Shown one piece after another: positions 9,010-40,968 of a stretch of DNA of 64,000 nt (positions are counted from its first letter, which is position 1; the number at the start of each line of letters is the position of its first letter). Under the pieces are notes generated by a model, which had not been told where the DNA came from, did no database searches, and was given only the letters and a program-made list of their open reading frames with translations. Source of the DNA: Candidatus Latescibacterota bacterium (GTDB lineage Bacteria; Latescibacterota; UBA2968; UBA8231); assembly GCA_965200315.1 (NCBI GenBank), contig OZ241362.1:5216001-5280000 (forward strand), in the 5' to 3' direction. The translations under genes and the position numbers were made by a program.

Positions 9010-9013
9010 AAAG

Positions 9014-11974: not shown

Positions 11975-12982
11975 CTATAACTCGGCGATGGATACTTCGC
12001 GGCCCTCCATCGCGCTTTTGACGGCCGCGAAAACCATGGCCATGGACTTGAGGTTGTCGGCCGCGTTGCACTCGGGAGGGCGGCCCTCCTCGATAGCGGC
12101 GACGAATTCCCTCAGCACGGGGTTCTGGTCTTGGCTACCATCGTCGTCGAGCGGAAGCTGCCGCCTGATTTTGGGATCGGCGCGATGCGAGTGGGTGTGG
12201 TACAAGTCAAAGCCCTCCCACGTCAGGGTGCCGCGCGGCCCCTCGTAGCGCCACTCGCCGTTGTGCCCGGCGGGCACGGAGCCGACCGTGCAGCCAATGC
12301 CGCGATGGGTGGCGACTGTGCCGTTGGCAAAGCGGAAGAGGATCATCTGGGCGGCGTCGCCTTGGTGCCAGCCCCAAGGGAGGTTCCAGGTGAGAGCGTG
12401 TGCGCTCACAGGGTCTTGGCCGAGGGTGTAGCGCATCATGTCGAAGTGGTGAATGCCCATGTCGGTGAGGAACATATACGGCTCGGTGACGTAGTGCGAG
12501 CCGGGCGAATCAGCCCAGTTGACGTAGAGTGAGACATCGAGCTGGCCGACCGGGCCGATGAGGTCTTCGGCGAGCAGGCGGCGGGTCGTGCGCGGCAGGC
12601 CGTTGAAGCGGTAGTTCTGGGTAATCATGTGGGCGACGCCGGCTTGAGTGCCCGCCTCCACCACGCGCCGGGCCGCTTGGTAATCGTCGCTGAGCGGCTT
12701 TTCTCCAAGCAGGTGCAGGCCGGCGGTAAAGGTCTGCACGGCGATTTCTTCGTGGATAGCTGGCGGGGTTACGTCGAGCACGAAGTCGGCCTGCACGGCG
12801 TCGAGAGCTTGGCCGAGGTCGCCGTATATCCGATCGGCGGCAAAACCGTGGTCGGCTGTCGCGCGCTGGTGGTTGGGCGCGGAAGGCTCGACGCAAGCTA
12901 CTACCTCGACGCCCGACTGCTGTTGGCACTGACCGAGCCAATAGCGTCCCCTACCGCCCAACCCTACGAGTATGGCTTTCAT
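11975..12982 (-). CDS. Gfo/Idh/MocA family oxidoreductase
   Basis: GLGGRG Rossmann motif, EKP, DMGIHHFD. Confidence 0.9.
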   Translation of the reverse strand: MKAILVGLGGRGRYWLGQCQQQSGVEVVACVEPSAPNHQRATADHGFAADRIYGDLGQALDAVQADFVLDVTPPAIHEEIAVQTFTAGLHLLGEKPLSDDYQAARRVVEAGTQAGVAHMITQNYRFNGLPRTTRRLLAEDLIGPVGQLDVSLYVNWADSPGSHYVTEPYMFLTDMGIHHFDMMRYTLGQDPVSAHALTWNLPWGWHQGDAAQMILFRFANGTVATHRGIGCTVGSVPAGHNGEWRYEGPRGTLTWEGFDLYHTHSHRADPKIRRQLPLDDDGSQDQNPVLREFVAAIEEGRPPECNAADNLKSMAMVFAAVKSAMEGREVSIAEL

Positions 12983-13055
12983 TGGTGTCCTTTCTTTCTC
13001 TTTATTCCTCCAAATAAAGGGCTTGGCCTGCGGCCGGGCCAGTCGCCGGAAAAAA

Positions 13056-13084
13056 TTGACACGGTTGGAGCATAGAACTACCTT
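13056..13084 (+). promoter_or_regulatory. Putative sigma70 promoter
   Basis: TTGACA (13056-13061), 17-nt spacer, TACCTT (13079-13084) in a divergent intergenic region. Confidence 0.55.
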
Positions 13085-13154
13085 TGGACGCTTTTAACGA
13101 GAGGTGCCATAGATAGCCCCCCTTTCGTCCCCTTGTCGCTGAGGTACACTGCTT

Positions 13155-14327
13155 TTGGCTACATCGCATAGGGTTTCTACTCGTCTTTTCCTCGCGCTTC
13201 TCGCGTGGTCTTTGAGTTGGAGTTGCGCCCAAGAAAACACCGAAGACGAGGAAATAGCCCCCGGGGTGGTATACCACAAAATTCACGTGCCCGAAGGGCC
13301 GTGGCGGATCTATGTGGTGGAGGTGGATCTGCCGCGCTCTTGGGCGGCGGGCATTCGCATACGCACAGCCAAGCAGAAAGAGACGCAAAAGACCAGTAGT
13401 TTGGCCGCCGGTGCCTTAGCGGCCATAAACGGGGATTTTTTGTTCCCCGGCGAACCCGGCCGGCCGGCCGGATTATACATTGAATCCGGTAATCTCGTCC
13501 ACCTCCCACAGCGGCGCTCGGCCTTTGCCATTACCGAGACGGGTCAGCCTTTGATCGCAGTGTACAAGATGGAATTGGGCCTGTTGACGGCCGGGGGCGA
13601 GCACCTGCACATCGCGGGCTTCAATCGCGAGTCGGCGCTCGGGGAGCTATCCGTGTTCAACGATCGCGCACAAATGCAGGGGGATTCGCTGCAAGCAGCC
13701 ACGGGCTTCCTATTGCAAGGATTGGACACATCCTCCATCGCCAACGACACGATCTCTGTTTGGGTCCAACAAATCCGGCGGCAGGCTTGGCCGCTCTCCC
13801 TCCAGCCCAACCAGTGGCTGTTGGCCGCTGGTGCTGAATACGAGGCGACAGAGCAGATCGCCTTGGGCGACACAGTGCAACTGTATTGTCGGCTGTTGCC
13901 AGCCCGCGCCACGCTGATGGAGGCCATCAGTGGTGGGCCGCGCATCCTGCGCGATGGCGAAGTCTCCATTGAAGTAGAAGAGGAGCGGCTTAGCCGCAGC
14001 TTTGCCGACAAGCGGCATCCGCGCACGGCCATTGGATATTCTCAAGACGAGCAGGTCCTCTTTCTGATTGCGGTCGATGGTCGGCAACCAGGGTACAGCG
14101 TTGGCATGAGTTTGCAAGAGCTAGCTGAATTTATGCGCACGCGCTTGGCCGAATTTTCCCGCGCCAAGGTCAATGCCTATCAAGGGCTAAACCTCGATGG
14201 CGGTGGCTCGACGACGATGGTCATAAGTGAGCAGGTGGTCAACAGGCCCTCTGATCCTACGGGCGAACGGCCGGTGGTCAATGCTCTGTTGGTCGTGCCG
14301 GATGTCTGGGACGAGGAGCGGCCCTAG
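13155..14327 (+). CDS. Phosphodiester glycosidase (NAGPA-like) family exported protein
   Basis: AAINGDF, HPRTAIG, AVDGRQPGYSVGM, NLDGGGSTTM; N-terminal signal peptide. Confidence 0.88.
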   Translation: MATSHRVSTRLFLALLAWSLSWSCAQENTEDEEIAPGVVYHKIHVPEGPWRIYVVEVDLPRSWAAGIRIRTAKQKETQKTSSLAAGALAAINGDFLFPGEPGRPAGLYIESGNLVHLPQRRSAFAITETGQPLIAVYKMELGLLTAGGEHLHIAGFNRESALGELSVFNDRAQMQGDSLQAATGFLLQGLDTSSIANDTISVWVQQIRRQAWPLSLQPNQWLLAAGAEYEATEQIALGDTVQLYCRLLPARATLMEAISGGPRILRDGEVSIEVEEERLSRSFADKRHPRTAIGYSQDEQVLFLIAVDGRQPGYSVGMSLQELAEFMRTRLAEFSRAKVNAYQGLNLDGGGSTTMVISEQVVNRPSDPTGERPVVNALLVVPDVWDEERP

Positions 14328-15391
14328 TGCCGACCTTGTGCGCCGAAGATCTCGATGCGCTGGCTCGAGCTTGCTTGCGGCGGGTCGGTGTTCCGGCGGA
14401 CGATGCGGCGTTGGTAGCCGAACACTTGGTCGAAGCCGGGCTGATGGGGCACGATACCCACAGCGTGTTGCGGCTGCCCCAATACGTGAACATGGTGCGC
14501 GACGGTCAAGTCGATCCTAAAGCCGAGTTGGTGGTGCTGGACGAAAGCGAGTGCGGGGGGCGGCTGAGTGGCCAGTGGAACTACGGACCGGTGACCGCAA
14601 CCGAGGCCGTGCGCTGGGCACTGGACAAGCTCGGCGACGGTGCCGTGGCGGTCGTCGGGGTGCGCGACTGCAACCACGTGGCGCGGCTGGGGCGTTTCGC
14701 CGAGATCGCTACCCGCGCCGACTGCATTGCACTCATCGCGGCCAATGGCCACGGCGGCGACAGTGCGGTGGCTCCCTTTGGTGGCCGCAGCCGTCGCTTG
14801 CCGACGAATCCGATCTGCTGCGGCATTCCCACCAGCGGCGCGTGGCCCGTGATCTTGGACATGACGACGAGCATGATTTCCGGTGGCGATATGCGGCTTT
14901 TGCGCAACAGGGGTGAAGATGCGCCGCCGGGAATGCTGATTGACTCAGAAGGTCTCCCAACGACAAAAGTGGACGCTTACTACGGCCCGCCGGCCGGTGC
15001 CATCTTGCCGCTTGGTTTCCCGCAGAGCGGTCACAAGGGCTACGGGCTTTCCGTGCTGGTTGATATTTTGGCCGGGTCGCTTTCCGGGGCCGGGATGACG
15101 CAAGAGGCACCCGAGCGCACGGGCAACGCGCTGTTCATCGCCGTGCTCAATGTCGCGGCTTTTCTGCCGTTGGACGAGTTTTACGCCGAGGTCGCAGGCT
15201 TTGTCGAGTGGGTTAAGTCGTGTCCGCCGGCTCCCGGAGTGGCCGAGGTGGTGCTGCCTGGGGAGCGAGCGTACCAGCGGTTGCAGGCGCGGCGGCGCGA
15301 TGGGCTGCACGTGGATGAGAAGGCTTGGGCCGAGATAGGAGCCTTGGCAGCCGAATTGGGAGTGGAACTGCCAATGCTGTTTAAAAATTAA
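14327..15391 (+). CDS. Ldh_2 family (malate/L-lactate/ureidoglycolate) dehydrogenase
   Basis: GHDTHS, NHVARLG, PTNPI, LDMTTS, GHKGYGL. Confidence 0.9.
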   Translation: MPTLCAEDLDALARACLRRVGVPADDAALVAEHLVEAGLMGHDTHSVLRLPQYVNMVRDGQVDPKAELVVLDESECGGRLSGQWNYGPVTATEAVRWALDKLGDGAVAVVGVRDCNHVARLGRFAEIATRADCIALIAANGHGGDSAVAPFGGRSRRLPTNPICCGIPTSGAWPVILDMTTSMISGGDMRLLRNRGEDAPPGMLIDSEGLPTTKVDAYYGPPAGAILPLGFPQSGHKGYGLSVLVDILAGSLSGAGMTQEAPERTGNALFIAVLNVAAFLPLDEFYAEVAGFVEWVKSCPPAPGVAEVVLPGERAYQRLQARRRDGLHVDEKAWAEIGALAAELGVELPMLFKN

Positions 15392-15424
15392 GACCTCGTA
15401 ATTCTAAATTAAAAGGAGTTTGCA

Positions 15425-16420
15425 ATGCTTCACATCGGGATTGTCGGCATGGGTGGAATTGGCAACAATCACGCCCGTTGCTACACGGCAAACGAGAACG
15501 CAAAGGTCGTCGCTGTGTGCGATATGGTTAAAGAGCAAGCGGACAGAGCGGCCGAGTCCTATGAGGCAGGGGCCTTTTACTCGATCGAGGAGATGATTGC
15601 TAGTGGCCTGCGGCTCGATGCCTGCTCGGTGACCACGGCTGGGGTGGAGAACGGGGGCGATCACTACGAGCCGACGATGGCGCTTTTGCGGGCCGGCATT
15701 CCAGTGCTGGGCGAGAAGCCGATTTCCAATGAAATTCCCAAGGCGCGGGAGATGGTGGCCTTGGCCGCACAAAAGCAGTTGCCCTACGGAATCAACCTGA
15801 ATCACCGCTTCACGCCCGCGGCCGTTAAGGCCAAGGAGTGGCTGACCAACGGGCGGCTCGGCGAGCTACAGATAATCAACATGACGATGTGGATCAACAA
15901 TCCCAACGAATCGAGTCCGTGGTTCCACATCCGCGCTCTGCACCCGCACTCGCTGGACGTGATGAGCTATTTCGCCGGCGGAGTGGATCGGGTCCACGCC
16001 TTTTTCAAGAAAGGAAAAGGTCGGCAGATCTGGTCCAATGTGCAGGCGAATCTGCTGTACGAGAATGGCGTCATCGGGCATTTGACCGGGTCGTACGACG
16101 CTGGAGGAAGCTACGGCTTGGAGACTTTGGAGCTAGTGGGTTCAGAGGGACGGGTCATCATCAACGAAGCCTGCGAAAAGCTGACGTTTTACCCGCGTTT
16201 TTCGCGCGAGGTGGAAAGCTACGATCACCTCGGGGGCATGGGCGGCTTTGCGGATACCTTTCCGATGCGCATCAACGCTTGGATCGACGATTTGCTAAAC
16301 CAAGTCCCGCCGGAGCAGGTGGATGCCAAAGGAGCGGACGCCTTGCGGGTCCAGTTGGTGATTGAGGCACTCATCGAAAGCTGGGAAACCGGGCTGGTGG
16401 TGAAGGTGCCGCAGCAATAA
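15425..16420 (+). CDS. Gfo/Idh/MocA family oxidoreductase
   Basis: GIVGMGGIG, EKP, NHRF; strong RBS AAGGAG. Confidence 0.9.
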   Translation: MLHIGIVGMGGIGNNHARCYTANENAKVVAVCDMVKEQADRAAESYEAGAFYSIEEMIASGLRLDACSVTTAGVENGGDHYEPTMALLRAGIPVLGEKPISNEIPKAREMVALAAQKQLPYGINLNHRFTPAAVKAKEWLTNGRLGELQIINMTMWINNPNESSPWFHIRALHPHSLDVMSYFAGGVDRVHAFFKKGKGRQIWSNVQANLLYENGVIGHLTGSYDAGGSYGLETLELVGSEGRVIINEACEKLTFYPRFSREVESYDHLGGMGGFADTFPMRINAWIDDLLNQVPPEQVDAKGADALRVQLVIEALIESWETGLVVKVPQQ

Positions 16421-16447
16421 GTGCAAATGGCGGCTGGGGGGGTAGTT

Positions 16448-16456
16448 TGTTATACT
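16448..16456 (+). promoter_or_regulatory. Extended -10 promoter element upstream of lepB-arc
   Basis: TGnTATACT about 22 nt before the lepB start; no good -35. Confidence 0.4.
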
Positions 16457-16478
16457 CAGGTCTGAGGAGATACTGCGG

Positions 16479-17183
16479 ATGAAGCAAGCCGAGAAAAAGT
16501 CCGAACTTGGCCAATACCTGCATTCGATACTGACCGTCGTGGGTTTGTTTCTGGTCATTCGCACTGGGGTGGTGCAGGCCTTTTACATCCCTTCTAGCTC
16601 GATGGAAGACACGCTCTTGGTGGGCGATTATCTGTTGGCCAACAAGTTTGTCTATGGCGTTCCGGTCGATGTGCCCCTGACGAGCATTTCCCTCTTCCGC
16701 CTGCCCGCGCTCAAGGAGCCGCAGCCGGGCGACATCGTGATTTTCCGCTCTCCGCAGGACGAGGGGCGCGACTTGATTAAGCGCTGCGTGGCCGTTGGGG
16801 GGCAGAAAGTGGAGATTGTCGACAAGGTGCTCTACGTCGATGGCCAGCACCAGCAGGACCCACCGCGGGCCAAGTACGCCGACCGCACGTACTATCCGGC
16901 GGAACGCAACTCCCGCGACAACTTTGGTCCGTATATTGTGCCCGAGGGACATTTCTTTATGATGGGCGACAACCGCGACAACAGCTCGGATAGCCGCTAC
17001 TTTCGCGCCGTGCCCAAGCGCTTGATCAAGGGCAAGGCCATGAATATCTATTGGTCGTGGGAGCCCGACACCCGCGGGCCTTACTACCGGGGCTTGACGT
17101 CTCTGCCCACGGTGGTGGCCAGCTTTATCTGGCGCCTGCCTAGCCGAGTGCGCTACGGGCGTCTCGGCGATATTATCTACTAG
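16479..17183 (+). CDS. lepB: Signal peptidase I
   Basis: IPSSSMEDTL (catalytic Ser), LIKRCVA (catalytic Lys), MGDNRDNSSDSR. Confidence 0.96.
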   Translation: MKQAEKKSELGQYLHSILTVVGLFLVIRTGVVQAFYIPSSSMEDTLLVGDYLLANKFVYGVPVDVPLTSISLFRLPALKEPQPGDIVIFRSPQDEGRDLIKRCVAVGGQKVEIVDKVLYVDGQHQQDPPRAKYADRTYYPAERNSRDNFGPYIVPEGHFFMMGDNRDNSSDSRYFRAVPKRLIKGKAMNIYWSWEPDTRGPYYRGLTSLPTVVASFIWRLPSRVRYGRLGDIIY

Positions 17184-17216
17184 CATCTTCCCTTACTCTT
17201 TGGAAAGGGGAGCGGA

Positions 17217-18908
17217 TTGAAACGGGAATCGCACGAATACGACAAGGCCCAAGAGCCAGAAGAGCAGGTCGCCGAGCCGTTGCGCTTGGTCGATCAGCTA
17301 CTCGCGCTGGCCCCAGACCGCGACCCGGCTCGGCCCCTGCTGTACCGTCTCCGGCGCCAGCTCATGGAGCGGGAGATTTCCTTTCAGGAGGCGCGCCGGG
17401 CGCTCGTGGAGATGGAAGCCGCGCTAGAGAAGGTGACGGCACCAGCCAACCGCGTCGGCATTTTTCTCGGCATGCCGTGCGAGGGGATTGCCACAGTCTT
17501 CGTCGGCAACGCCGAGTACTATGCCAACATCGACCCGCGCGTCGATGGGTCCCAGCTCAAGGTTGGCTGCCGGGTGCTGGTAAACGAAGCGTACGCGGTC
17601 GTCGGCAACTTGGGGCACAGCCCCTCGGGGCCGGTGGCCAAAATTGGCGATCTGCTCCCAGAGGGCCGGTTGCGCATCGCCCAAGCGCACGGCACCCAAG
17701 AGGTGGTCGTGGAGCGTGCGGCGGAATTGGCGGACGCGAATTTGCAAATCGGCGATGAGGTGCGGATGGACCCGGCCTACAAGGTCGCCCTAGAAATGTT
17801 GCAGTCGGCCGAGAGCAAGGAGTACTTCATCGAGGATGTTCCTCCAACTCCTTGGGAGAGCATCGGCGGCCAGCAAGAGGCGATCGAAGCCATCCGCGAC
17901 ACCATTGAGCTGCCCGCGTTGCACCCTCAGCTCTTCGAGCGCTTCGAGTATTCGACGCCCAAGGGCTTTCTGCTCTACGGCCCTCCAGGTTGCGGTAAGA
18001 CCCTCATCGGCAAGGCCACGGCGTACAACTTGGTCCAGCACATGCGCGAGGTCGAGGGTTTGGAGTTGGAAGAGTACTTCATGCACATCAAGGGGCCGGA
18101 GATACTCAACATGTGGCTCGGCGAGACCGAGCGCATGGTGCGCGAAGTCTTTGCCCAGGCGCGCCAAAAGCGCAAGGAAGGCTATTTGCCCTTTGTCTTT
18201 ATCGACGAAGCCGAGTCGATCTTGGGCACGCGGCGCTCGATGCGCAGCCACAACATCTCCAATACGGTCGTGCCGATGTTTTGCACCGAGATGGACGGCA
18301 TTGAGTCGCTGCACGACGTAGTGCTGATTTTGGCCTCTAACCGCCACGATCTGATTGATCCGGCCGTGCTCCGGCCCGGCCGCATCGACCGCAAGATCAA
18401 GGTCGCACGCCCCAACTACGAGGCGGCCGGCGACATTTTAGGGATTTACCTCAAGCCCGAACTGCCGATCGATAGCACCGAGGTAGAGCAGCACGGCAGC
18501 GAAGCGGCCGCGCACGAGGCCATAATACAGGAGGGGCTAGACGAGTTATTTTCCAAAGGCGAAGAAGCCCGTTTCTTAGAGGTGTCGCTGCGCAGTGGCC
18601 GCCAAGAAGTGCTCTATCGCGGCGATCTGATTTCCGGAGCCATCATCGCCTCGGTCGTATCGCGGGCCAAGGAAATGGCGATCAAGCGCGCCATTGCCGA
18701 AGAAGACCCCGAAGGCGGGATTCGCGCCGAGGACTTGCGGCAAGCGACGCGGGCTGAATACCGCGAGAACGAGGTGTTCCCACCCTCGGACAGCGTCGAG
18801 GATTGGCTCAAGCTGCTCGACTACGAGCCGGAGAACGTGGTGAGGGTGATACCCGTTAGACCCCAGCCGGAAAAGGCACCGGAAAAGCGCGTCGGTCAGG
18901 TGATCTGA
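17217..18908 (+). CDS. arc: Proteasome-associated AAA ATPase (ARC/Mpa)
   Basis: N-terminal coiled coil plus tandem OB region, GFLLYGPPGCGKT, IKGPEILN, FIDEAES, DPAVLRPGRIDRKIK; heads the proteasome operon. Confidence 0.93.
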   Translation: MKRESHEYDKAQEPEEQVAEPLRLVDQLLALAPDRDPARPLLYRLRRQLMEREISFQEARRALVEMEAALEKVTAPANRVGIFLGMPCEGIATVFVGNAEYYANIDPRVDGSQLKVGCRVLVNEAYAVVGNLGHSPSGPVAKIGDLLPEGRLRIAQAHGTQEVVVERAAELADANLQIGDEVRMDPAYKVALEMLQSAESKEYFIEDVPPTPWESIGGQQEAIEAIRDTIELPALHPQLFERFEYSTPKGFLLYGPPGCGKTLIGKATAYNLVQHMREVEGLELEEYFMHIKGPEILNMWLGETERMVREVFAQARQKRKEGYLPFVFIDEAESILGTRRSMRSHNISNTVVPMFCTEMDGIESLHDVVLILASNRHDLIDPAVLRPGRIDRKIKVARPNYEAAGDILGIYLKPELPIDSTEVEQHGSEAAAHEAIIQEGLDELFSKGEEARFLEVSLRSGRQEVLYRGDLISGAIIASVVSRAKEMAIKRAIAEEDPEGGIRAEDLRQATRAEYRENEVFPPSDSVEDWLKLLDYEPENVVRVIPVRPQPEKAPEKRVGQVI

Positions 18909-18916
18909 TTCAGTTC

Positions 18917-20461
18917 ATGCAGCGGCTCTGCGGGCTAGAAACCGAGTACGGCATCCAGGTTGATGAGGACGAGTCCATGGACGTGGTGGTAGAGTCCATG
19001 GAGTTGATTCGCTGCTATGTGCGTCAAGATTTTGTCACGCTGTGGAATTACGCGCTCGAAAACCCGCGGCTCGACATGCGCGGCTTTGAGGTCACCGAGC
19101 TACTCAACGACAAAGATGAGACCGTCCACTTGCAGAAGGATCGCCAGCGCCCGATCCAGCTAGCGGACCTCAAAAGCGACTTGATCGTCCACAACGGTGC
19201 CCGCCTGTACAACGACCACACCCACCCGGAATTTTCTACTCCAGAGTGCTATAGTCTCCGCGACTTAGTCGCTGTCGATCGCGCTGGCGAGCGGATTCTT
19301 CTCCAGTGTGCGCGCCAGCGCACCGAGGACCGCCGCCGCGGTGTGGTGCGCTTGTACAAAAACAACACTGACTTTGAGGGGCATAGCTATGGCTGCCACG
19401 AGAATTTCCTGCTCAGCCGCGACATGCCCTTCCAGCAGGTGATTGACGGGCTGCTGCCCTTTGTGGTGACGCGGCAAATTTTTGCCGGGGCTGGCAAAGT
19501 CGGCGTCGAACAGGACGCCCGGGCGCGGGCCGCCACCTACCAACTAAGCCAGCGCGCGGACTTTTTCGAGGTCATCGCCAGCGTCGATACCATGCACCGC
19601 CGTCCATTGGTCAACACCCGCGACGAGCCACATGCCGATCCTGCGCACTACCGCCGCCTGCATCTGATCATCGGCGATGCCAACATGTGCGAATACGCTA
19701 CCGCGCTCAAGGTCGGCACGTCTTCCTTGGTGCTGGATTTGCTAGAAGCTGGTACATTGCCCGCGTTTACCTTGGCCGATCCCATTGGTGCGCTCAAGGT
19801 CATTTCCCGCGACGAATCACAGCAGTGGCCAGTGGCTTTAGTCGGGGGAGGATCGAGTTCGGCGCTGGAGATCCAAACAGCCATTATGGCGGCGGCGACG
19901 CGGGCTTTTCAGGGCCGCGACGAGGAGACCGATTGGGTGCTTACGGCTTGGCGCGATGTGTTGGACTCACTTGCGCGCAATCCGCAGGAGCTGATCGGAC
20001 GCCTTGATTGGGTGACCAAAAAGTGGCTTTTGGATGCGTTTGCCGAGTCCGAGGGCCTCGATTGGGAACGGCCGGAGGACCGCACGTGGCTGCAAAGCCA
20101 AGACCTCGAATACCACAACATCGACCCGGCAGAGGGATTGTTCTTGCTGCTTGAAGCCGCAGGCGAGGTAGAGCGCGTCGTCTCCGAGGAGGCGGTGTGT
20201 CGGGCGTTGGTTGAGCCGCCCGGGGACACGCGGGCCTATTTTCGCGGCAAGATGTTGCAGAAGTTTGCCGCGTCGGTGCGCTCGCTCAACTGGGACAGCA
20301 TTGCGCTAACCATCGGCGGTCGCTCTGAGGTCATTGACCTCAAGGCTTGTGTCAGCCGGGAGGTAGCGACTTATTATAATCAAGCCTTAGACGCGGCGAC
20401 GAGCGTTGAGGATTTGCTCGCCAGACTGGGTAGAAAACCAAAACCGGAGGTGGCACCATGA
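18917..20461 (+). CDS. dop: Dop-like deamidase/deconjugase (PafA/Dop family)
   Basis: GLETEYGI, NGARLYNDHTHPEFSTPEC (Dop-type DHxHPE), KNNTD..G.SYGCHENF, RPLVNTRDEPHAD. Confidence 0.85.
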   Translation: MQRLCGLETEYGIQVDEDESMDVVVESMELIRCYVRQDFVTLWNYALENPRLDMRGFEVTELLNDKDETVHLQKDRQRPIQLADLKSDLIVHNGARLYNDHTHPEFSTPECYSLRDLVAVDRAGERILLQCARQRTEDRRRGVVRLYKNNTDFEGHSYGCHENFLLSRDMPFQQVIDGLLPFVVTRQIFAGAGKVGVEQDARARAATYQLSQRADFFEVIASVDTMHRRPLVNTRDEPHADPAHYRRLHLIIGDANMCEYATALKVGTSSLVLDLLEAGTLPAFTLADPIGALKVISRDESQQWPVALVGGGSSSALEIQTAIMAAATRAFQGRDEETDWVLTAWRDVLDSLARNPQELIGRLDWVTKKWLLDAFAESEGLDWERPEDRTWLQSQDLEYHNIDPAEGLFLLLEAAGEVERVVSEEAVCRALVEPPGDTRAYFRGKMLQKFAASVRSLNWDSIALTIGGRSEVIDLKACVSREVATYYNQALDAATSVEDLLARLGRKPKPEVAP

Positions 20462-20649
20462 GCGATTTTATTTCCTACCGGGAGCGCACGCCCCGGCCGA
20501 CCAAGCCGCTTGACGACAACGACGACGGACCAGATACCGGTCCGCGCCGGCCGCGGGTCGAGCGTCCTAGCACGGACGATATCCTCAAGCGGATGCGCCG
20601 CGTAGATCCCAATCAGGCCCGTCGCTATCGCCAGCGCACCGGACAGTAA
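20458..20649 (+). CDS. ubact: Ubiquitin-like modifier UBact (Pup analogue)
   Basis: 63 aa, acidic/Pro-rich, C-terminus LKRMRRVDPNQARRYRQRTGQ (UBact R[ST]G[EQ]); RBS GGAGG; ATGA overlap with dop; lies between dop and prcB. Confidence 0.92.
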   Translation: MSDFISYRERTPRPTKPLDDNDDGPDTGPRRPRVERPSTDDILKRMRRVDPNQARRYRQRTGQ

Positions 20650-21414
20650 TTGCCGATGGAAAGCTGCAACTTCCTCGACTTGCTCAAGGAGCGGGGGCTC
20701 TTGCCCGTTGCCCCCGTTGCTACTGCGGAAGCGTCCTTGCAGCCGGTCGAGGGTACCACGATTGTAGCGGTGCGCTGCGCCGACGGGGTGGTGGTGGCTG
20801 GCGACCGCCGCGCCACCATGGGCAACTCAGTGGTGTACGACCGCGCCGACAAAGTGCTGATCATCGACGACGAAGCAGTCATGGCCATTGCTGGCTCGCC
20901 GGCCGTGGCGTGGGACATTGCGCGGATGCTGGAAATGTCGGTGCAGTACTACCGCCGCAGCCAGCTACAAGAGCTGAGCTTGGACGGCAAGGTGCGGACT
21001 TTGTCGCGGCTGTTGCGCCAGAACTTGCCGCTGGCCATGCAGGGGATTGGCGCAGTGGTCCCGATTTTCGCGGCCTTTGATCGCACGGCTGCAGAGGGCA
21101 AAATTTTCTTTTACGACCTTTTGGGGGCTGAGTTCGAGTGTGTGGATTTCTGCGCCACTGGGTCGGGGGCACACATTGTACGCGGTGCGCTGTACTATCA
21201 AAACCGCTGGGGGCCGCAGCCGTTGCGGGAAATGGCCGGGGAGCAGGCGGTTGAGCTGGTGCTCAAGATGCTGGAGACAGCCGCTGAATACGACACGGCT
21301 ACTGGCGGTTTCCGCGAGGCCGCGCACATCTTTCCCCAGGTCGTGCAGGTGACGGCTGCGGGTTTGAGCGCTGTGCCCGAAGCGGATTTGGCCGCGCTCT
21401 ACTCAAGGGCTTGA
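20650..21414 (+). CDS. prcB: 20S proteasome beta subunit
   Basis: Propeptide then G|TTIVA (Thr1), GDRRATMG, ATGSG. Start may be ATG 20656. Confidence 0.93.
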   Translation: MPMESCNFLDLLKERGLLPVAPVATAEASLQPVEGTTIVAVRCADGVVVAGDRRATMGNSVVYDRADKVLIIDDEAVMAIAGSPAVAWDIARMLEMSVQYYRRSQLQELSLDGKVRTLSRLLRQNLPLAMQGIGAVVPIFAAFDRTAAEGKIFFYDLLGAEFECVDFCATGSGAHIVRGALYYQNRWGPQPLREMAGEQAVELVLKMLETAAEYDTATGGFREAAHIFPQVVQVTAAGLSAVPEADLAALYSRA

Positions 21415-21419
21415 GGAGC

Positions 21420-22181
21420 ATGTTAGAAGAACCTTATCGCTGGGTCGAGGCCATCAATAACCGCCGCGAGTACGTGGAAGACCAACTCGCGAGCGGCAGT
21501 CCGGTAGTAGGCGCGACGTACGCCGATGGGCTACTGCTGCTGACAGCTACGCCAGGCCCGCGCAAGCTCTTTGAGGTGTACGACGAGATCGCCTTTGCGG
21601 CCGTAGGGCATCCAGCCGACATCGAGAAGCTCCGCAAAGCCGTCATCGACATCGCCCATATCGAGGGATTCAACTTGTCGGCCAACGATGTGACTTTACA
21701 GCGGTTGGTCAGCTTTGGCATCGGTCCGCTGATGAAGGCGGCTTTCGACGAGCTGTTTCGCTCGCCCTTTGTCGCCCGCGTGCTGATGGCCGAGCTAGAC
21801 CCGGATGGCGGTGGAGATGCTTTTTTTACCATCGACGCCGATGGGTCTTTTGCCCAAAGTGGTGGGGTGGCGACCATCAGCGGCAACGCAGAGAGCGCAC
21901 AGGCTATGAGGGCCCAACTGCAAGAAACTAGTCCAGAGCTTCCCCTCGACCAAGCCTTGTGTGCGGCGTTGGAGGTGTGGGGGTTGGGCCGGTTGATCCT
22001 CGACACTCGAGATGGAGAGCTGCCCAGCGCAGAGGCTGTGCGCGATTTTCTCAAGGGCGGCTTGCAAGGGCTGACAGTCGAAGCCGCAGTGCTCGACCGC
22101 GGCCGCGCCGCCAAGTCGAAGTTCCGCCTGCTCACCGCGCAACAACTAGCCGAGCCACTCGCTTCCTACTTCGAGAGCTAG
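21420..22181 (+). CDS. prcA: 20S proteasome alpha subunit
   Basis: GSPVVG, RKLFEVYDEIAFAAVG, VEAAVLDR...KFR; ATG at 21420 after GAGGAG. Confidence 0.9.
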   Translation: MLEEPYRWVEAINNRREYVEDQLASGSPVVGATYADGLLLLTATPGPRKLFEVYDEIAFAAVGHPADIEKLRKAVIDIAHIEGFNLSANDVTLQRLVSFGIGPLMKAAFDELFRSPFVARVLMAELDPDGGGDAFFTIDADGSFAQSGGVATISGNAESAQAMRAQLQETSPELPLDQALCAALEVWGLGRLILDTRDGELPSAEAVRDFLKGGLQGLTVEAAVLDRGRAAKSKFRLLTAQQLAEPLASYFES

Positions 22182-22182
22182 T

Positions 22183-23610
22183 ATGGAAGGTCGCATCTAC
22201 GGGCTGGAAACAGAGTACGGTTGTCTGCCGCCGGCTTCGGATCCCTTTTTGAGTCCCGATTTCGTGTCGATAAAGGCCAAGGACTGCGTGTTCTACCGCG
22301 AGGGTTTGGGCATCGTCGATATGCACTATCGGGGCCGCGATGAGCCGCCCGGCAACGGCGGCTTTCTCTTCAACGGCGGGCGCGTGTACATCGACATGGG
22401 CCACGTCGAATACGCCACTCCGGAATGCACCGGACTTTTTGATTTGGTGGCTGCCGATCGGGCCGGTGAGCGGTTGGTGCAGCGCGCGCTAGATCAGCTT
22501 GGCTTGGCTGATAGCGCGGCCTTTTTCAAGAACAATATCGACCACTACACAGGGGCTACGTTTGGCTGCCACGAAAACTACCTCGTGCGGCGAGAGGTGC
22601 CGTTTTCGCAAGTGTTGCTGCCGACTATGCTGCCCTTTTTCGTCACCCGCCAGATATTCGCCGGTGCTGGCCGCGTGGGTTGCCACACGGATATTTTCGA
22701 GTACGGCAATGCCGAGGACGAAGGCATTGGATTCCAACTGTCGCAGCGGGCCGACCACATAGTCACCGAGATCTACCAGTGGATTCAGTTCAGTCGCGCA
22801 ATCATCAACACGCGCGACGAGCCGCTGGCCGACTGGGGGCTGTACCGCCGCTTGCACCTTTTGGTAGGCGATTCAAATATGATGGAGTACGCCACTGCCC
22901 TGAAGGTGGGTACCACGGCCTTGGTGTTGCAGCTTTTAGAAGAGCAAGAGCGCATAATCTGCGACGACATCAGGCTCCTCGACCCGGTGCAAGCTATCCG
23001 CGACATTTCGCGCGACATGACCTATCGCTGGGAAGTGCAGCTAGAGGACGGTCGCTACACCACGGCTACGGAGATTCAGCGTGCGTATCTCGACTTGGCT
23101 GAGCGCCATCTGCGCGGCCAGGACGAAGAGGGCGACTGGGTGTTGGACGAGTGGCGCTTTGTCATCGACGCCTTAGAGCACGATCCTCAGTGCTTGGTTG
23201 ATCGCGTTGATTGGGTAGCCAAGAAGTGGCTGTTGGAGTACTTCATGCGGGAAGAAGGGTTGGACTGGCAGGATACTTGGATCCAAAGTTTGGATTTGGA
23301 ATACCACAATCTCAATGTGGCGCGGAGCCTCTATTTTGATCTGTACGAGCGCGGGATGGTCAAGCGAGTCGTCAGCGAAGAGCAGATCAACCAAGCCATT
23401 ACGCATCCTCCGGTCGATACGCGTGCCAGTGCCCGTTCTCGCGTGATGAGGGCGCTGACCGACCAGAAGACGCGCTACCAAATCGATTGGGATTCCATCT
23501 GCGTGGGCGACGATAAATTCCTCAGCCTCGACGACCCCTTTCTCACCTATGGCCGCGAAGCCGAAGTCTTCATCCGCGAATGTCGGCAGATGCCGGGTGC
23601 CCAGCTTTGA
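22183..23610 (+). CDS. pafA: PafA-like modifier ligase
   Basis: RIYGLETEYG, NGGRVYIDMGHVEYATPEC (PafA-type), GCHENYL, RAIINTRDEP, RRLHLLVGDSN. Confidence 0.85.
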   Translation: MEGRIYGLETEYGCLPPASDPFLSPDFVSIKAKDCVFYREGLGIVDMHYRGRDEPPGNGGFLFNGGRVYIDMGHVEYATPECTGLFDLVAADRAGERLVQRALDQLGLADSAAFFKNNIDHYTGATFGCHENYLVRREVPFSQVLLPTMLPFFVTRQIFAGAGRVGCHTDIFEYGNAEDEGIGFQLSQRADHIVTEIYQWIQFSRAIINTRDEPLADWGLYRRLHLLVGDSNMMEYATALKVGTTALVLQLLEEQERIICDDIRLLDPVQAIRDISRDMTYRWEVQLEDGRYTTATEIQRAYLDLAERHLRGQDEEGDWVLDEWRFVIDALEHDPQCLVDRVDWVAKKWLLEYFMREEGLDWQDTWIQSLDLEYHNLNVARSLYFDLYERGMVKRVVSEEQINQAITHPPVDTRASARSRVMRALTDQKTRYQIDWDSICVGDDKFLSLDDPFLTYGREAEVFIRECRQMPGAQL

Positions 23611-23694
23611 TGTATGCCGCTGGGCCGGCAAGTCTCAAGAGATTGTCATACGTTAGCTATAGAGCATTCCTCTATGGGGACCTCCTCGATTGGC

Positions 23695-24120
23695 TTCATT
23701 AGAAGATCGCACTTCTACAGTTAGCCAGTCGCGTCGTGGCGTAGCATATACCGACTGACAGGTTTTGAGTTAGTTGAGTTTTTGCGGGAAAGGTTGGTGT
23801 TGTTAAGAGTGCTTATGTCTGCTAGTGGCTCTATTTACCTGCACATCGACTACAAAATTGGTCCCTACATCAAAGTGATGATGGATGAAGTATTTGGCAT
23901 CGCTAATCCCAAGAATTTTAAGCGGATTGGATATGGCAACTTAAAAGACACGATTCTGTTTTTATCGCAAAACATCGCATCTTACATGGAATGAACCAAA
24001 AGAAAAGTACTCGACACAAATCTAGAGGGGCTGTTTCCAAAAATAGACCAACGAGGAAGGCGTTATACTAAGGTGCCGATTCACGCGCCGGGAGAAACTC
24101 AACGCGGAAAACCTAGATAG
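23695..24120 (+). pseudogene. Decayed site-specific (N6A/N4C) DNA methyltransferase fragment
   Basis: EFLRERLVLLR...GSIYLHIDYKIGPYIKVMMDEVFG...YGNLKDTILF, then frameshifted WNEPKEK / GRRYTKVPIHAPGET. No start and several frame changes. Confidence 0.7.
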
Positions 24121-24146
24121 GGAGTCATGTCAAGGTTTGGTATTAA

Positions 24147-24242
24147 GAGGCCCTAACAAAACTGGATTCCCGCCTACGCGAGAACGACATGGGCGGGATA
24201 CTCGCGTTGTGAGTAGCACTCAGCGGGTTTTGTTAGGGCCTC
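24147..24242. mobile_element. MITE-like element (IS5/Harbinger-type ends)
   Basis: Perfect 16-bp terminal inverted repeats GAGGCCCTAACAAAAC / GTTTTGTTAGGGCCTC, flanked by TAA on both sides; 96 bp, non-coding. Confidence 0.7.
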
Positions 24243-24275
24243 TAAGAATGTTTAACCGTTGTAGGAGAACAACGC

Positions 24276-25011
24276 ATGAGTACTGTTAGTTGCTTCGACG
24301 CATTACGAAAAGCGTTATGTGCCGATTTGGATTTTCATGGTACAGACGGCAAGTATGCCTCGCATGGTTGGCATCCGTTTCCCGCCAAGTTTCCGCAGTG
24401 GCCGATTGAATTTCCAAACAACAGGTACGCCTTTTCAAATTCGAGCGGCTAGCGCGGATAAAACCGGCTTGGCAACTGAGAGCGTTGATCTGATTGTAAC
24501 GTCGCCTCCTTATGCCAACAATGCGATTGACTATATGCGAGCACACAAGTTTTCGCTGGTGTGGTTTGGCTGGAAAATAGCCAATCTCACCAAGATTCGC
24601 GCCCAGTACTTGGGACACGATGTCGCATCCGACGAGAAATACGATTGTTTGCCTGATCAATGCGAAAAAACGCTGGTAAGGCTGGCCAAACTCGACGCGA
24701 AAAAAGCGGGGGCTTTGCGCCGGTATTTCGGCGAAATGCAAGCTGTGATTGCAGAGATGCAGCGGGTTTTAAAAAAAGGTAAGGCAGCCGTAACTGTCGT
24801 CGGTACCTCGCATCTGCGCGGCATGGATGTTGAGACACAAAAGGGGCTAGCCTCCATTGGTGAAAGCGTTGGTTTTGACTTGGCCGGAATCGGCGTCCGC
24901 CGTTTAGATCGCGACAAGCGCATGATGCCAGCGCGCTGGGGTACTAAACGACACTCGCAGATTGAACAGCGGATGTACGAAGAGTACGTCATTGGATTGG
25001 TAAAGCCATAA
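24276..25011 (+). pseudogene. N4-cytosine-type DNA methyltransferase, internally deleted and frameshifted
   Basis: RBS AGGAGA, ATG 24276 MSTVS...HGWHPFPAKFP, then in another frame VDLIVTSPPY...EMQRVLKKG. The SAM-binding DPFxGxG region is missing. Confidence 0.75.
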
Positions 25012-25848
25012 TGTTGGGTAGGGTCGAACAACTGCGACGTGCATACCATTGCCAGATTTGCGATAAGATATTGCGCAAAAACGAATCTGATGTTCCCAAC
25101 AATGCCGATAGTGGAAGTGCGGCCAGCGTCAGAATAGGCAAGAGAATTATTGACAGTATCGGGTTTCCGGTAAAGACTGAAAGACTAGCCGGACAAACAG
25201 CGGGCCACCGATTCGAGACGGCAACCAAGGATTTTCTGCGCGACGCATTCGGATTGCTAGCTCATCTGCGTCCAGGCGAATGGGAATTTTCGCTAGGCGG
25301 TAATATAGGTGATTACGAGCAATACCAGCATTTATCCGATGTGTCGCGGGTAGTCGAAGAGCCCGAGGAACTGCGAATTGTTTTAGGAGATTACATCGTT
25401 ACGCCTGATATTGTCGTTTGCCGGAAGCCAGTCAACGACGAGACGATCAATGAAAACGATGTGTTGTTAGGCGAGGGCGAAACAGCTAGGCATACGCCTT
25501 TGCGGCGTGCGAATTCGCCAGCGGATATTTTGCATGCCAGTGTTTCGTGCAAATGGACGATTCGCAGCGACCGCTCGCAAAACGCACGGACGGAAGGATT
25601 TGAATTTGGTACGTAACCGCAAGGGCCGGACTCCGCATATTGTCGTCGTTGTTGGTGAACCATTGCCAAGTAGAATCGCGTCGCTGGCCTATGGCACTGG
25701 AGACATAGATTGCATCTACCATTTTGCGTTACGCGAATTGATAGAAGCCGCTGCGGATAGCGATTCGGACTCTGATCTATTGAATACGCTAGTGTCCGGC
25801 CGGCGCTTGCGCGACGCCAGTGATCTGCCGTTTGATTTGGCGATTTGA
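25011..25848 (+). pseudogene. NgoMIV-family type II restriction endonuclease, frameshifted
   Basis: GQTAG..FE, PDIVV, LHASVSCKWTIRSDRSQNARTE, then a +1 shift near 25598 to LNLVRNRKGRTPHIVVV.GEPLPSRIASLA.GTGDIDC.YH...DLPFDLAI. Confidence 0.85.
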
Positions 25849-25857
25849 GCATCCTTC

Positions 25858-28800
25858 ATGCTGCGGCGATGGTTTCTGTTCTTCTTCCTGTTTGCACCGT
25901 ACCCGTCCTCGGCGGCCCAGTTTGCCTGCGCGGCGTTGGAGTCGTCGGCACAGCAGGTTGTGCATACGCCAGAGCACCTGAGTGCATTAGTTATCTTCGC
26001 GCAGTTCCAAGATGAGGGTGCCCCTACCACTGCGCCCTCGTGGGCAAACGGCCTTTTCGACGCTGAGTTGCCCGGCAGTTTTGCCCATTTCTACCGCGAT
26101 ATGTCGGGCGGACGGATTCACGTCGATGGTCAGGTACTGCCGCGGCGCTATCAATCGCGCACGGCTGCAGATACCTACTTGGCTGATGCTCTAGGGGCTA
26201 GGGGCCAGTTTGGCCGTTTCAATCTGGAGATTCTCACCGCAGCCGACGCGGACGCCGATTTCGGTCTCTTTGACAACGACGGTCCCGACGGAGTGCCCAA
26301 CTCTGGCGACGACGACGGGTACGTCGATATCGTCTTTATCAACCTACATACTACTCCCCGCGATTTCTTTATCGGCGCGGCCACTGGCATCGCTAGTCTG
26401 GGGCTAGACACCGATTACATTAGCGGCGATCCGGCGGCCGGCGGCGGCTTTGTGCGGGTGCGGAGTCGCTTCACGGGTTTCGGCGGCACCACGCAGCGGG
26501 GCCACACCTTCAGCATTACGGCCGCGACAATGTGCCACGAGTTCGCTCATGTGTTGGGATTGCCTGATCTTTTCGATCAGACGGCGTTGACCGTGGCCGA
26601 GTTGGCCCCGGAGGAAGATTCTGCGGGCATTGGCAATTGGGGGATCATGGGCTGGGGGACGCTCGGTTGGGGCGTGGAAGATGGCCCGAATGCCTTTTCG
26701 GCGTGGTCGCTAGCCACTCTCGGTTGGGTAGAGGTGGTAGAGGTGGAAGGGAGCGTCTCAGGGCTGGAGATTGGGGAGATCTTCGGCGACCGCAAGGCGT
26801 ACAAAATTTCCCTGACCCAAGACGAGTACTTTCTGCTGGAACACCGGCGCGCCGATGGCTCGTACTACAACCGCAATATCCCGCAAGATGGCCTGCTTAT
26901 ATGGCACATAGACGAGCAGGCCGACAACGACGAAGAGCGCCACAAACAGGTCGATTTAGTATGCGCCGATGGGCTTTTTGCCGACCGGGGCTTTCCCAAC
27001 GGCAACCCCGATGCCGTGGAAGGACGGGACAATCTCGACTTTTGGGCGCGGGACGCAGCGTATTCTTCAGCTCACAATGGCAACAAAGGCGACGCGACCG
27101 ACCCTTTTGACGGCGTGCGCTTCCGCCGCTTTGCTTGGGACACAAATCCGGCCTTCAGCGGGCACACGGGCTTTGGGCGGAACTTGCCGTTGAGCGTGGC
27201 CATAGACAACATCCGCCCACAAGGTGCCGCGATGGTCGTCGATGTGGTGCGGCAGCAACGCACTGGCCACATTGTCGGCGATACAACGTGGACGGGTCGG
27301 GTGGATTTGGATGGGGACGTGGTCGTGATGCCGGGTGCCGCGCTGACCATTGACGCGGGTGCGGAGATCCGCTTTGCTCGCGGCGATGTGCAGGGCACGG
27401 GATTTGATCCAGACCGCAGCGAGTTGATCGTCTATGGCGAGCTCAAAATCGGCGAGGGCGCATCGTTTGCGTCGAGTGCGACGCGCTCCGGCCCCTTGGA
27501 TTGGTCGGGCATTTACCTGCTCGATGGCCAAGGGGTTGATCCTGCGGCCATTGCCATTGAGCACGCCCATCGCGGGGTCGTTGGTTTCCGCCTGCCGCCG
27601 GGGCGGACTCAGTGGCTGGACGAGCAGGCCGTGTACGGGGATTTGGTGGTGCCGGTTGGGTCCGAACTGCACATCGGCCCGAGCAGCGTGTCTTTTGCCC
27701 GCTCTGATCTCAGTCGGAGCGGCATGTCCCCGGACTTCGCCGAGCTGATCGTGGAAGGCGCGTTGACGATTGAGGGGATGGCCGGCCAGCGGGCGCAGCT
27801 AACCACTGATCCCGGCCCGGACAACGACGGCCTGTGGTATGGCGTCCGCGTGCTGCCGGGTGCCCAAGTCGAGGTGCAACACGCCGAGCTGAGGCGCACG
27901 GCTTTTGCCTTTAGTGGCGAGATTAACGGGAAGACGAGCCTACGCATTGTCGATTCCGCGGTGCGCGAAAGCGGTGGCAACGGCCTACGGCTGGCGCTCA
28001 ATGGCCAAGCACAGGTAGATCGGACTGAATTTACCTTCATTGCCGGCCCGGCCGTGCTCGTGGCCGGTAGCGGGCAACTCGCGTTGCGCAACGTCACCAT
28101 TGAGGGCAACGGCCAAGAGGGGCTCCTGCTCAACAACGCATCCTTAGAGGCTATCCGCGTCGCTGTAATAGACAATGGCCGCCTCGACTCGGACGACCCG
28201 CGGGCTGGGGTGCGGGCCATAGGGGGCCGCGGCCAGCGCATTGAGATGTGGGAGTCGCAGATTGAGCAAAACACCGGGCATGGCATGGATTTGACAGAGT
28301 GGTTAGGGGAGGTGGAATTGCACAACAGCCGCCTCGTCGCCAACCAAGGCGATGGTTTGCGCGCCGAGCGTGCGGCGCGCTTGGTACTTGCACAGGTGCT
28401 AGTCGAGCGCAATTTGCGTACTGGGGCCGAAATCGCCGGGTCGCTGGTGGAGATATGGAACTCGACGTTTAGGGCGCATGTTGCCGCGGGGTTGCGCTTG
28501 GGGCCGGGGACGAGAGGGGCAATTGAGATGGGCGCGTTTGTTGGGGGCCGAGGTTTGGAGCTAACCGGTGTGGAGTCGCTGGAGATTCGCGCCAGCGAGT
28601 TTGTCCGCGGGACGCCGGCCATTCAATCCGTGAATTCTGCACCGCATATCGTCGGCAACCGCTTTGCGGACAATGCCGGGGCCATCCGGGTCGCAGGGCC
28701 GCGGATGCCGACGGCGATTCGCGGCAACACCTTTGCCAACAATACTAAGGCCATTGAGAATTTGAGCGCCGAGGAGTTGAACGCCCAAGACAATTACTGG

Positions 28801-29181
28801 AGCGGGGCCGATAGTGCGTCCATTGCTGTGCAGATCGAGGGTTCGGTGGCGTGGACGCCGTTTCGCACGGAGGAAGGGGCATCCAAGGCGGTGGTCCTGC
28901 CCACCGATTTTGCGCTGCATCTGGCCTATCCCAACCCCTTCAACGCCGAGGTGGCATTGTCGTTTGATCTGCCTCAGGCGTCGTCGGTCGCGCTGGTGCT
29001 CTACGATGCGCTAGGACGGCCCGTGCGCCATCTTGTAGAAGGGTCGTTAGCGGCTGGCCGCTACCGATTCGTCTGGAACGGACGCGACCGAGAGGGGAGA
29101 GCGGTGGCTGCGGGAATGTACTTCTATCGCTTGGTGGCGGATTCGTTTGTCGCGGTGGGGCGCTTGGTGTTGGTGCGTTGA
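25858..29181 (+). CDS. Secreted M6 (immune inhibitor A-like) metalloprotease with beta-helix repeats and FlgD-Ig C-terminal domain
   Basis: Signal peptide, HEFAHVLGLPDLF, WGIMG Met-turn, EYFLLE.R, GLLIWHID, parallel beta-helix repeats, YPNPFN...WNGRD..G..VAAGMYFYRL. Confidence 0.9.
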   Translation: MLRRWFLFFFLFAPYPSSAAQFACAALESSAQQVVHTPEHLSALVIFAQFQDEGAPTTAPSWANGLFDAELPGSFAHFYRDMSGGRIHVDGQVLPRRYQSRTAADTYLADALGARGQFGRFNLEILTAADADADFGLFDNDGPDGVPNSGDDDGYVDIVFINLHTTPRDFFIGAATGIASLGLDTDYISGDPAAGGGFVRVRSRFTGFGGTTQRGHTFSITAATMCHEFAHVLGLPDLFDQTALTVAELAPEEDSAGIGNWGIMGWGTLGWGVEDGPNAFSAWSLATLGWVEVVEVEGSVSGLEIGEIFGDRKAYKISLTQDEYFLLEHRRADGSYYNRNIPQDGLLIWHIDEQADNDEERHKQVDLVCADGLFADRGFPNGNPDAVEGRDNLDFWARDAAYSSAHNGNKGDATDPFDGVRFRRFAWDTNPAFSGHTGFGRNLPLSVAIDNIRPQGAAMVVDVVRQQRTGHIVGDTTWTGRVDLDGDVVVMPGAALTIDAGAEIRFARGDVQGTGFDPDRSELIVYGELKIGEGASFASSATRSGPLDWSGIYLLDGQGVDPAAIAIEHAHRGVVGFRLPPGRTQWLDEQAVYGDLVVPVGSELHIGPSSVSFARSDLSRSGMSPDFAELIVEGALTIEGMAGQRAQLTTDPGPDNDGLWYGVRVLPGAQVEVQHAELRRTAFAFSGEINGKTSLRIVDSAVRESGGNGLRLALNGQAQVDRTEFTFIAGPAVLVAGSGQLALRNVTIEGNGQEGLLLNNASLEAIRVAVIDNGRLDSDDPRAGVRAIGGRGQRIEMWESQIEQNTGHGMDLTEWLGEVELHNSRLVANQGDGLRAERAARLVLAQVLVERNLRTGAEIAGSLVEIWNSTFRAHVAAGLRLGPGTRGAIEMGAFVGGRGLELTGVESLEIRASEFVRGTPAIQSVNSAPHIVGNRFADNAGAIRVAGPRMPTAIRGNTFANNTKAIENLSAEELNAQDNYWSGADSASIAVQIEGSVAWTPFRTEEGASKAVVLPTDFALHLAYPNPFNAEVALSFDLPQASSVALVLYDALGRPVRHLVEGSLAAGRYRFVWNGRDREGRAVAAGMYFYRLVADSFVAVGRLVLVR

Positions 29182-40949: not shown

Positions 40950-40968
40950 TCCGCCCCACCTGAGTTTG

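Follow-up and report, generated by a model that had tools for sequence, protein, structure and literature searches.

The question raised by this locus is whether a bacterium of the Latescibacterota encodes a complete and functional UBact-proteasome system, that is, a small protein modifier together with the enzymes and the proteasome that would act on it. The window referred to throughout is the whole stretch of 64,000 nucleotides (nt) analysed, positions 5,216,001 to 5,280,000 of contig OZ241362.1 from Candidatus Latescibacterota bacterium (assembly GCA_965200315.1). An initial annotation had read window positions 17217 to 23610 as a complete arc-dop-ubact-prcB-prcA-pafA operon in a diderm bacterium. 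Family matches and gene order agree with this and confirm, at the level of sequence, that the locus is an intact six-gene UBact-proteasome operon. It is very probable, on the combined analyses given below, that the operon is functional, and that it works most likely in the manner of the actinobacterial Pup-proteasome system. The six genes are as follows.

17217-18908, plus strand: arc, encoding an ARC/Mpa-like AAA+ unfoldase of 563 amino acids (aa)
18917-20461, plus strand: dop-like gene, encoding a Pup_ligase family protein with a Dop-loop, 514 aa
20458-20649, plus strand: gene for the UBact modifier, 63 aa
20650-21414, plus strand: prcB, encoding the 20S proteasome beta subunit, 254 aa
21411-22181, plus strand: prcA, encoding a divergent 20S proteasome alpha subunit, 256 aa
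22183-23610, plus strand: pafA-like gene, encoding the loop-less Pup_ligase paralog and presumed UBact ligase, 475 aa

The genes are as tightly coupled as had been claimed, with gaps of 8 nt or less. Reading from the DNA, arc and the dop-like gene are separated by 8 nt, the stop codon of the dop-like gene and the start codon of the UBact gene share an ATGA overlap, and a single nucleotide lies between prcA and the pafA-like gene. The two remaining junctions depend upon the start codons chosen. If prcB starts at its TTG it follows the UBact gene directly (0 nt), and if it starts at the ATG at 20656 it follows after 6 nt; prcA overlaps prcB by 4 nt when read from its TTG, or lies 5 nt beyond it when read from the ATG at 21420. 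The ATG at 20656 is the likely start of prcB. For prcA the ATG at 21420 appears the likely start, being preferred because the N-terminus is conserved in relatives. The TTG start of arc is preceded by a GGGGAG Shine-Dalgarno sequence. There are no internal stops in any of the six open reading frames (ORFs), which are therefore intact as originally described, and their GC content at third codon positions (GC3) is 0.71 to 0.79, comparable to that of the flanking genes. Promoter and terminator scans found no excess over shuffled sequence (4 promoter sites against a mean of 3.5, and 11 terminator sites against 10.0), and are therefore uninformative on the boundaries of the operon. The profile searches that had been proposed for the gene families returned matches to UBact, to Pup_ligase (two genes), and to Proteasome (two genes).

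The identification of the modifier as UBact stands. Its gene sits between the dop-like gene and prcB, and the product passes both curated cut-offs, with 73.2 bits against 27.8 for the Pfam family PF20513 (E = 1.5e-20) and 73.9 bits against 35 for the NCBIfam model NF033388. The protein ends in RQRTGQ, which fits R-[ST]-G-[EQ], quoted in the initial annotation and taken here to be the defining UBact ending. A single UBact copy is present in the whole genome and no match to the Pup family PF05639 was found anywhere in it. UBact is present in 75 of 79 related loci, with the ending RQRTGQ in 44 and RQRTGE in 31. In an alignment of 32 rows there are 20 invariant columns, and the final 14 residues are almost invariant among the related loci. 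The last 40 codons occur in 74 distinct DNA versions and 42 protein versions, and over 1671 pairs the mean nonsynonymous rate (dN) is 0.145 and the mean synonymous rate (dS) is 1.334, a ratio of 0.109. These figures place the UBact tail under strong purifying selection. They also show the small ORF to be conserved, and agree with the selection that the initial annotation had inferred from the intact ORFs.

As had been stated, the operon encodes two paralogs of the glutamine synthetase (GS) fold, with Pfam Pup_ligase matches of 1.6e-157 and 7.8e-142. It is the first of these alone that carries the Dop-loop, an insertion of approximately 40 residues according to PMC7947786. The first paralog scores 449 bits with the NCBIfam Dop model TIGR03688 and 357.5 with the PafA model; as the former is below the equivalog cut-off of 492.3, it is classed as Dop-like and not as the actinobacterial equivalog. 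Against the solved Dop structure 4b0r it scores 392 bits over residues 1 to 504, compared with 248 bits against PafA. These same residues 1 to 504 align with residues 1 to 499 of Acidothermus Dop through the Dop-loop region, and the PafA models align only from residues 77 to 86 onwards. The active-site motif is D100-H101, and the N-D-H-T and S-T-P-E segments are present. At 11 alignment columns that discriminate Dop from PafA it has the Dop state at 6, the PafA state at 1, and other residues at 4. In the tree of 76 rows described below it falls in a clade with a support of 100 that adjoins the actinobacterial Dop clade. Each of these comparisons thus marks the first paralog as Dop-like.

The second, loop-less paralog is less simply named. 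With its Dop-like neighbour it shares 47% identity and the GhExE motif. The Dop-loop is absent, the alignments with Dop beginning at residues 57 to 61 of the query and at 81 to 84 of the solved chain, and the catalytic aspartate is D71. With the PafA model TIGR03686 it scores 367.9 bits against a cut-off of 551.3, and with the Dop model 369.8 bits against 492.3. Being under the PafA cut-off and tied with Dop, it is therefore classed as PafA-like only. At the positions listed as uniquely conserved in PafA in Table 1 of Hecht et al. (PMC7947786), it has PafA states at F61, G73, A78, H192, S204, and D435, and Dop states at S29, P80, and E196, with other residues at the remainder. Its C-terminal DPF tail aligns with PafA only, and the histidine that follows the catalytic aspartate in Dop is absent. 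The loop-less paralog is thus, as far as its residues indicate, a mosaic of Dop-type and PafA-type features. The name PafA given to it initially holds in so far as it is a loop-less Pup_ligase paralog; since its PafA score does not exceed its Dop score, the name is otherwise a guess as to function. Structural models of the two paralogs were made with AlphaFold2, with predicted local distance difference test (pLDDT) values of 88.6 and 89.6. A Foldseek search of the Protein Data Bank with the loop-less model did not separate Dop from PafA (TMq 0.84 to 0.86 and 0.83 to 0.84, respectively).

A complex of the loop-less paralog with UBact was also predicted, with a score of 0.85 as the median of three runs and 0.00 for the best of 3 controls. 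In the benchmark, 116 of the 157 solved complexes reach this score, as do 2 of the 215 mismatched pairs. Contact agreement among the runs is at least 76% and the pLDDT of the partner is at least 53. UBact residues 39, 41 to 43, and 45 to 63 are placed in contact with enzyme residues 11 to 15, 71 to 74, 115 to 130, and 350 to 387, a set that makes up the active-site cradle together with the C-terminal groove. In the model this groove holds the conserved C-terminal half of UBact, and the end of UBact lies at the cradle near D71. The high score may reflect only likeness to the solved Pup-PafA complex (4BJR).

The place of both paralogs within the Pup_ligase family was addressed with a search of representatives at 50% identity, in which the loop-less paralog had 5742 matches (E of 0.001 or less), the best at 64% identity and the next at 44%. 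The NCBIfam scan covered 96 of the 150 matches listed, fragments and P0116 to P0150 being left out, and among these 96 there are 7 that pass the PafA cut-off and 19 that pass the Dop cut-off. The tree of 76 rows combines the pair from the window with eight proteins taken from four loci and with 66 of the 96 representatives scanned; the other 30, which are not in the tree, are surplus Dop sequences and forms that have inserts or split matches. It splits a PafA side, which includes the loop-less clade, from a Dop side with a support of 93 in the Shimodaira-Hasegawa approximate likelihood ratio test (SH-aLRT). In a subset tree of 30 rows actinobacterial Dop instead joins PafA (83), and forcing the loop-less clade with PafA costs 5.3 log-likelihood units (lnL), with a P value of 0.332 in the approximately unbiased test (p-AU).

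Constrained trees of the 76 rows were made under LG+F+G4 with the IQ-TREE '-fast' option. The grouping of the loop-less clade with PafA has the best lnL (p-AU 0.883), that with the UBact-type Dop-like clade is 31.7 lnL below it (p-AU 0.181), and the third arrangement is 69.1 lnL below it (p-AU 0.0013). These searches are weak, the unconstrained tree falling 57.8 lnL short of the best constrained one. The trees thus favour, without proving it, one ancient duplication, which would make the loop-less paralog orthologous to actinobacterial PafA.

The remaining three genes encode the unfoldase and the proteasome core. In the arc product an N-terminal helical part is followed by two OB domains and then by one AAA domain; the Pfam matches are to AAA (1.8e-30), Prot_ATP_ID_OB_N, and Prot_ATP_ID_OB_C. 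It scores 453.8 bits with TIGR03689, below the cut-off of 504.75, and its closest solved relative is Mpa of Mycobacterium tuberculosis (5kwa), at 340 bits with residues 55 to 544 aligned. PrcB matches the Pfam family Proteasome at 5.4e-31 and TIGR03690 at 170.9 bits against a cut-off of 191.9. It has a propeptide of 35 residues, with Thr1 as residue 36 (G35|T36), Asp17 as D52, and Lys33 as K68. The mature beta chain of Rhodococcus (1q5q_H) aligns from residue 36, and PrcB of Rhodococcus and of M. tuberculosis are its closest solved relatives. PrcA is more divergent, with a Proteasome match of 1.4e-06 (28.6 bits against a cut-off of 22.4) and 80.1 bits with TIGR03691 against a cut-off of 139.05. 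Its closest solved relatives are PrcA of Rhodococcus and of M. tuberculosis, at 43 to 49 bits. The only two Proteasome-family genes in the genome are those of the UBact operon, and there is therefore no HslV.

The system is widely shared among the relatives of this bacterium. All 41 relatives carry both Pup_ligase paralogs, approximately 3.2 kb apart, and so do 122 of the 151 genomes taken as a sample of the phylum. Broken down by family, the pair is found in 63 of 66 genomes of f1, 31 of 31 of f2, 3 of 3 of f3, 22 of 22 of f4, and 2 of 2 of f6, and in none of the 26 genomes from nine other sampled families. Families f1 to f4 thus have it in 119 of 122, which shows the UBact-proteasome pathway to be a stable core trait of one entire class within the Latescibacterota. 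The same six-gene order is present in 67 of the 79 genome loci, and 11 of the other 12 are cut by contig ends. The order is also that of most of the 44 metagenome loci of more than 4 kb, which come from a scan with the UBact alignment that reached mostly close relatives (UBact identity 52 to 81%) and gives little view of other phyla.

Some loci depart from this arrangement. In L089 (7531-13518) arc and dop are followed by an aminotransferase, a dockerin/LRR protein, and two squalene/phytoene synthases, with no UBact or 20S genes there. Locus L026, from the same genus as the window, has approximately 1.8 kb inserted at the 3' end of dop (7512-9434). The insert contains a 400 aa ORF without a Pfam match and a second copy of the last 40 or so codons of dop just before the UBact gene. 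A solitary UBact gene is found between a methyltransferase and CvpA in L146 (6992-7156), and a UBact-prcB pair only, with a GATase upstream and a SpoIIE/GAF phosphatase downstream, in L155 (7001-7980) and L154. In these three loci there is no Pup_ligase or ARC gene within 7 kb. An inverted second ubact-prcB copy is head to head with the first in L164 (6368-7902); this may be an assembly artefact.

The host genome is a single contig of 5.36 Mb that is 94.7% complete by marker count. It has 6 matches to the Omp85/BamA family, the best being 167.5 bits in a frame of 806 aa. LpxC and LptD were not matched in this single-contig genome. The initial description of the host as a diderm is supported by the Omp85/BamA-family genes.

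Contigs assembled from four metatranscriptome runs of one study carry 93 to 99% of the sampled words of the operon. They bridge every internal junction, for example at 16817-22809 (5993 nt) and 12000-23378, and continue from the signal peptidase I gene upstream into the operon. Within the UBact ORF there are no differences from the window. The lower depth of these contigs downstream of the operon is not usable to rank expression. RNA runs labelled as sponge, marine, or coral carry only 6 to 12% of the sampled words and are uninformative on habitat. At 22820, inside the gene for the loop-less paralog, the contigs of three RNA-library runs diverge from the window sequence, which suggests that a strain differing in the 3' half of this gene co-occurs.

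We infer every biochemical step of the pathway as follows. UBact would be synthesised with its C-terminal glutamine, which the Dop-like enzyme would deamidate to glutamate; this enzyme would also be able to strip the tag from proteins. The loop-less paralog would use ATP to phosphorylate the gamma-carboxylate of the glutamate and then join it to lysine side chains of the target. A hexamer of ARC would capture the disordered tag, unfold the substrate, and feed it into the 20S core composed of PrcA and PrcB.

UBact conjugation-proteasome loci of Gram-negative phyla were reportedly described by Lehmann, Udasin, Livneh, and Ciechanover (BBRC, 2017). The canonical order of such loci is Mpa-like, Dop, UBact, PrcB, PrcA, and PafA-like. 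The locus described here has the same modifier family, the same R-T-G-Q/E ending, and the same six-gene order, and differs from them in nothing essential, its host being a genus of the Latescibacterota. The operon is therefore an ordinary member of a catalogued system with curated Pfam and NCBIfam models, and no new kind of system. Among Gram-negative-type bacteria, no other pathway that joins ubiquitin-like tagging to a proteasome is known to us.

The likeness to the actinobacterial Pup-proteasome system extends to gene order, protein families, and catalytic residues. Tags ending in glutamine and in glutamate are both found among the relatives, and for each of the five large proteins the closest solved relative is actinobacterial. 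There are also differences. The tag belongs to the UBact family rather than to Pup, the five large proteins are under the NCBIfam equivalog cut-offs, and the host has an Omp85-type outer-membrane protein. Unlike actinobacterial Mpa, which ends in GQYL, the ARC tail is GQVI, with [VI][IV] in relatives. Unlike actinobacterial PafA, the loop-less paralog is a mosaic of residues of both types, with 47% identity to its Dop-like neighbour. The locus offers a clean and complete gene set with a Gln-ending tag, in which to ask whether the loop-less paralog is truly a ligase given its Dop-like features, and how the 20S gate would be opened without the tyrosine of GQYL.

Several observations weigh against a functional operon of the Pup type. 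A literature search found no biochemical test of any step of a UBact system, the relevant papers doing no more than mention UBact, and nothing on topic for Latescibacteria and the proteasome, with most subscription journals outside the search. The RNA-library contigs are compatible with expression of the operon and are no proof of transcription, because DNA may occur in such libraries. All five large proteins score below the NCBIfam actinobacterial equivalog cut-offs, and the ARC tail is without the tyrosine of the Mpa GQYL motif. The case for the loop-less paralog as a ligase is also weak on several points. In pairwise comparison it scores 299 bits against solved Dop and 246 bits against solved PafA, and its NCBIfam scores are tied. 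The one-residue insertion (Val/Ser) that follows the catalytic aspartate in PafA is absent from it, and residue 80 is a proline as in Dop. The 'alpha-loop', a helix in PafA according to PMC7947786, is modelled by AlphaFold2 as strand plus coil in both paralogs alike; in the loop-less model a short helix (190-192) and a strand (195-198) are followed by coil as far as 204, with a local pLDDT of 71 to 82. In addition, Dop of M. smegmatis from which the Dop-loop has been removed remains a depupylase, as reported in that paper.

These features of the loop-less paralog could mean that it acts as another hydrolase, unregulated because it is in effect a Dop without the inhibitory loop, and that ligation falls to the Dop-like enzyme or to an unlinked protein. 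This is highly improbable in view of the six PafA-type states and the PafA-only DPF tail, the absence of the histidine that follows the aspartate in Dop, and the position on the PafA side of the 76-row tree, which the constrained trees also favour. Moreover, there are exactly two Pup_ligase genes in the whole genome and the pair is kept in every one of the 41 relatives, which would be hard to explain in a system without a ligase.

Alternatively, the loop-less enzyme of UBact systems might be no orthologue of actinobacterial PafA and could have come about through a separate duplication of a Dop-like ancestor, the Dop-loop being lost and ligase activity gained on two occasions, with ARC docking onto the 20S core through a Tyr-less aliphatic tail rather than through GQYL. 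We consider this combination unlikely. If true, UBact tagging would be partly a convergent re-invention of pupylation and not a transferred copy of it. The ARC tail also bears on how closely tag and proteasome are joined. It is stated in PMC8142254 that Mpa of M. tuberculosis requires the C-terminal GQYL for opening of the 20S gate, and that wild-type Mpa and 20S do not robustly degrade pupylated proteins in vitro. Some metagenomic loci, as noted above, carry UBact alone or UBact and prcB only. It might be supposed from this that UBact mainly regulates proteins or has them unfolded through ARC, the 20S core degrading mostly untagged or disordered proteins. Such loose coupling is very unlikely where six genes are packed within 8 nt of one another and their order is so widely kept. 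A penultimate tyrosine is found in none of the 77 ARC tails from genome loci, but the two terminal aliphatic residues, [VI][IV], are kept in 75 of these 77 and in 30 of 30 metagenome tails, which suggests a conserved docking role.

Finally, the operon adjoins a low-GC island with restriction-modification genes, and might for this reason be taken for an inactive relic or for recently acquired foreign DNA without a role. There is scarcely any likelihood of this, since its GC3 matches that of the neighbouring genes, all frames are intact, the UBact dN/dS ratio is low, and the whole class carries the system. The conservation and selection data refute the relic or foreign-DNA reading to the extent that sequence can do so. 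A functional operon that most likely works as the Pup-proteasome system does is thus the reading retained.

The immediate surroundings of the operon are as follows.

16479-17183, plus strand: signal peptidase I gene (S26; Pfam Peptidase_S26, 2.3e-47)
23611-25857: low-GC island (0.51) between the operon and an M6-like peptidase gene
24319-25011: N6/N4-type methylase remnant in this downstream island
25011-25616: NgoMIV-like ORF in the same island

The signal peptidase I gene is 33 nt from arc and is also found upstream of it in 46 of the 79 related loci. On the other side, the M6-like peptidase gene begins approximately 60 to 170 nt after the operon in five loci from the same genus, and the downstream island is therefore an insertion. 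Approximately 590 to 650 extra nt are present at 24396/24397 in other strains, seen in the contigs from the RNA runs, and in loci L015, L023, L033, and L070.

Heavy decay of the neighbouring loci had been proposed initially. This is true of the mobile restriction-modification remnants in the low-GC islands, but not of the region at large, where the genes are mostly intact. Of 28 larger neighbouring ORFs scanned, 23 have a Pfam match and 5 do not, and all but two of the matches span the profile. The neighbours are mostly intact housekeeping or metabolic genes. The two that are truncated are restriction-modification remnants, both in low-GC stretches: the NgoMIV-like ORF, which covers profile positions 1-192 of 275, and a fragment of a D12 methylase, which covers 1-71 of 253. 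The methylase remnant in the downstream island is a further one.

Three further low-GC stretches of the window carry restriction-modification genes: 1-1936, with a C5 methylase cut by the window start and a 347 aa ORF without a Pfam match; 31363-33900, with an 845 aa Eco57I/MmeI-type enzyme; and 39533-40803, with the D12 methylase fragment. The window also has two large paralogs at 25858-29181 and 40879-43638, each with an M6 peptidase domain, a beta-helix, and a FlgD-Ig domain.

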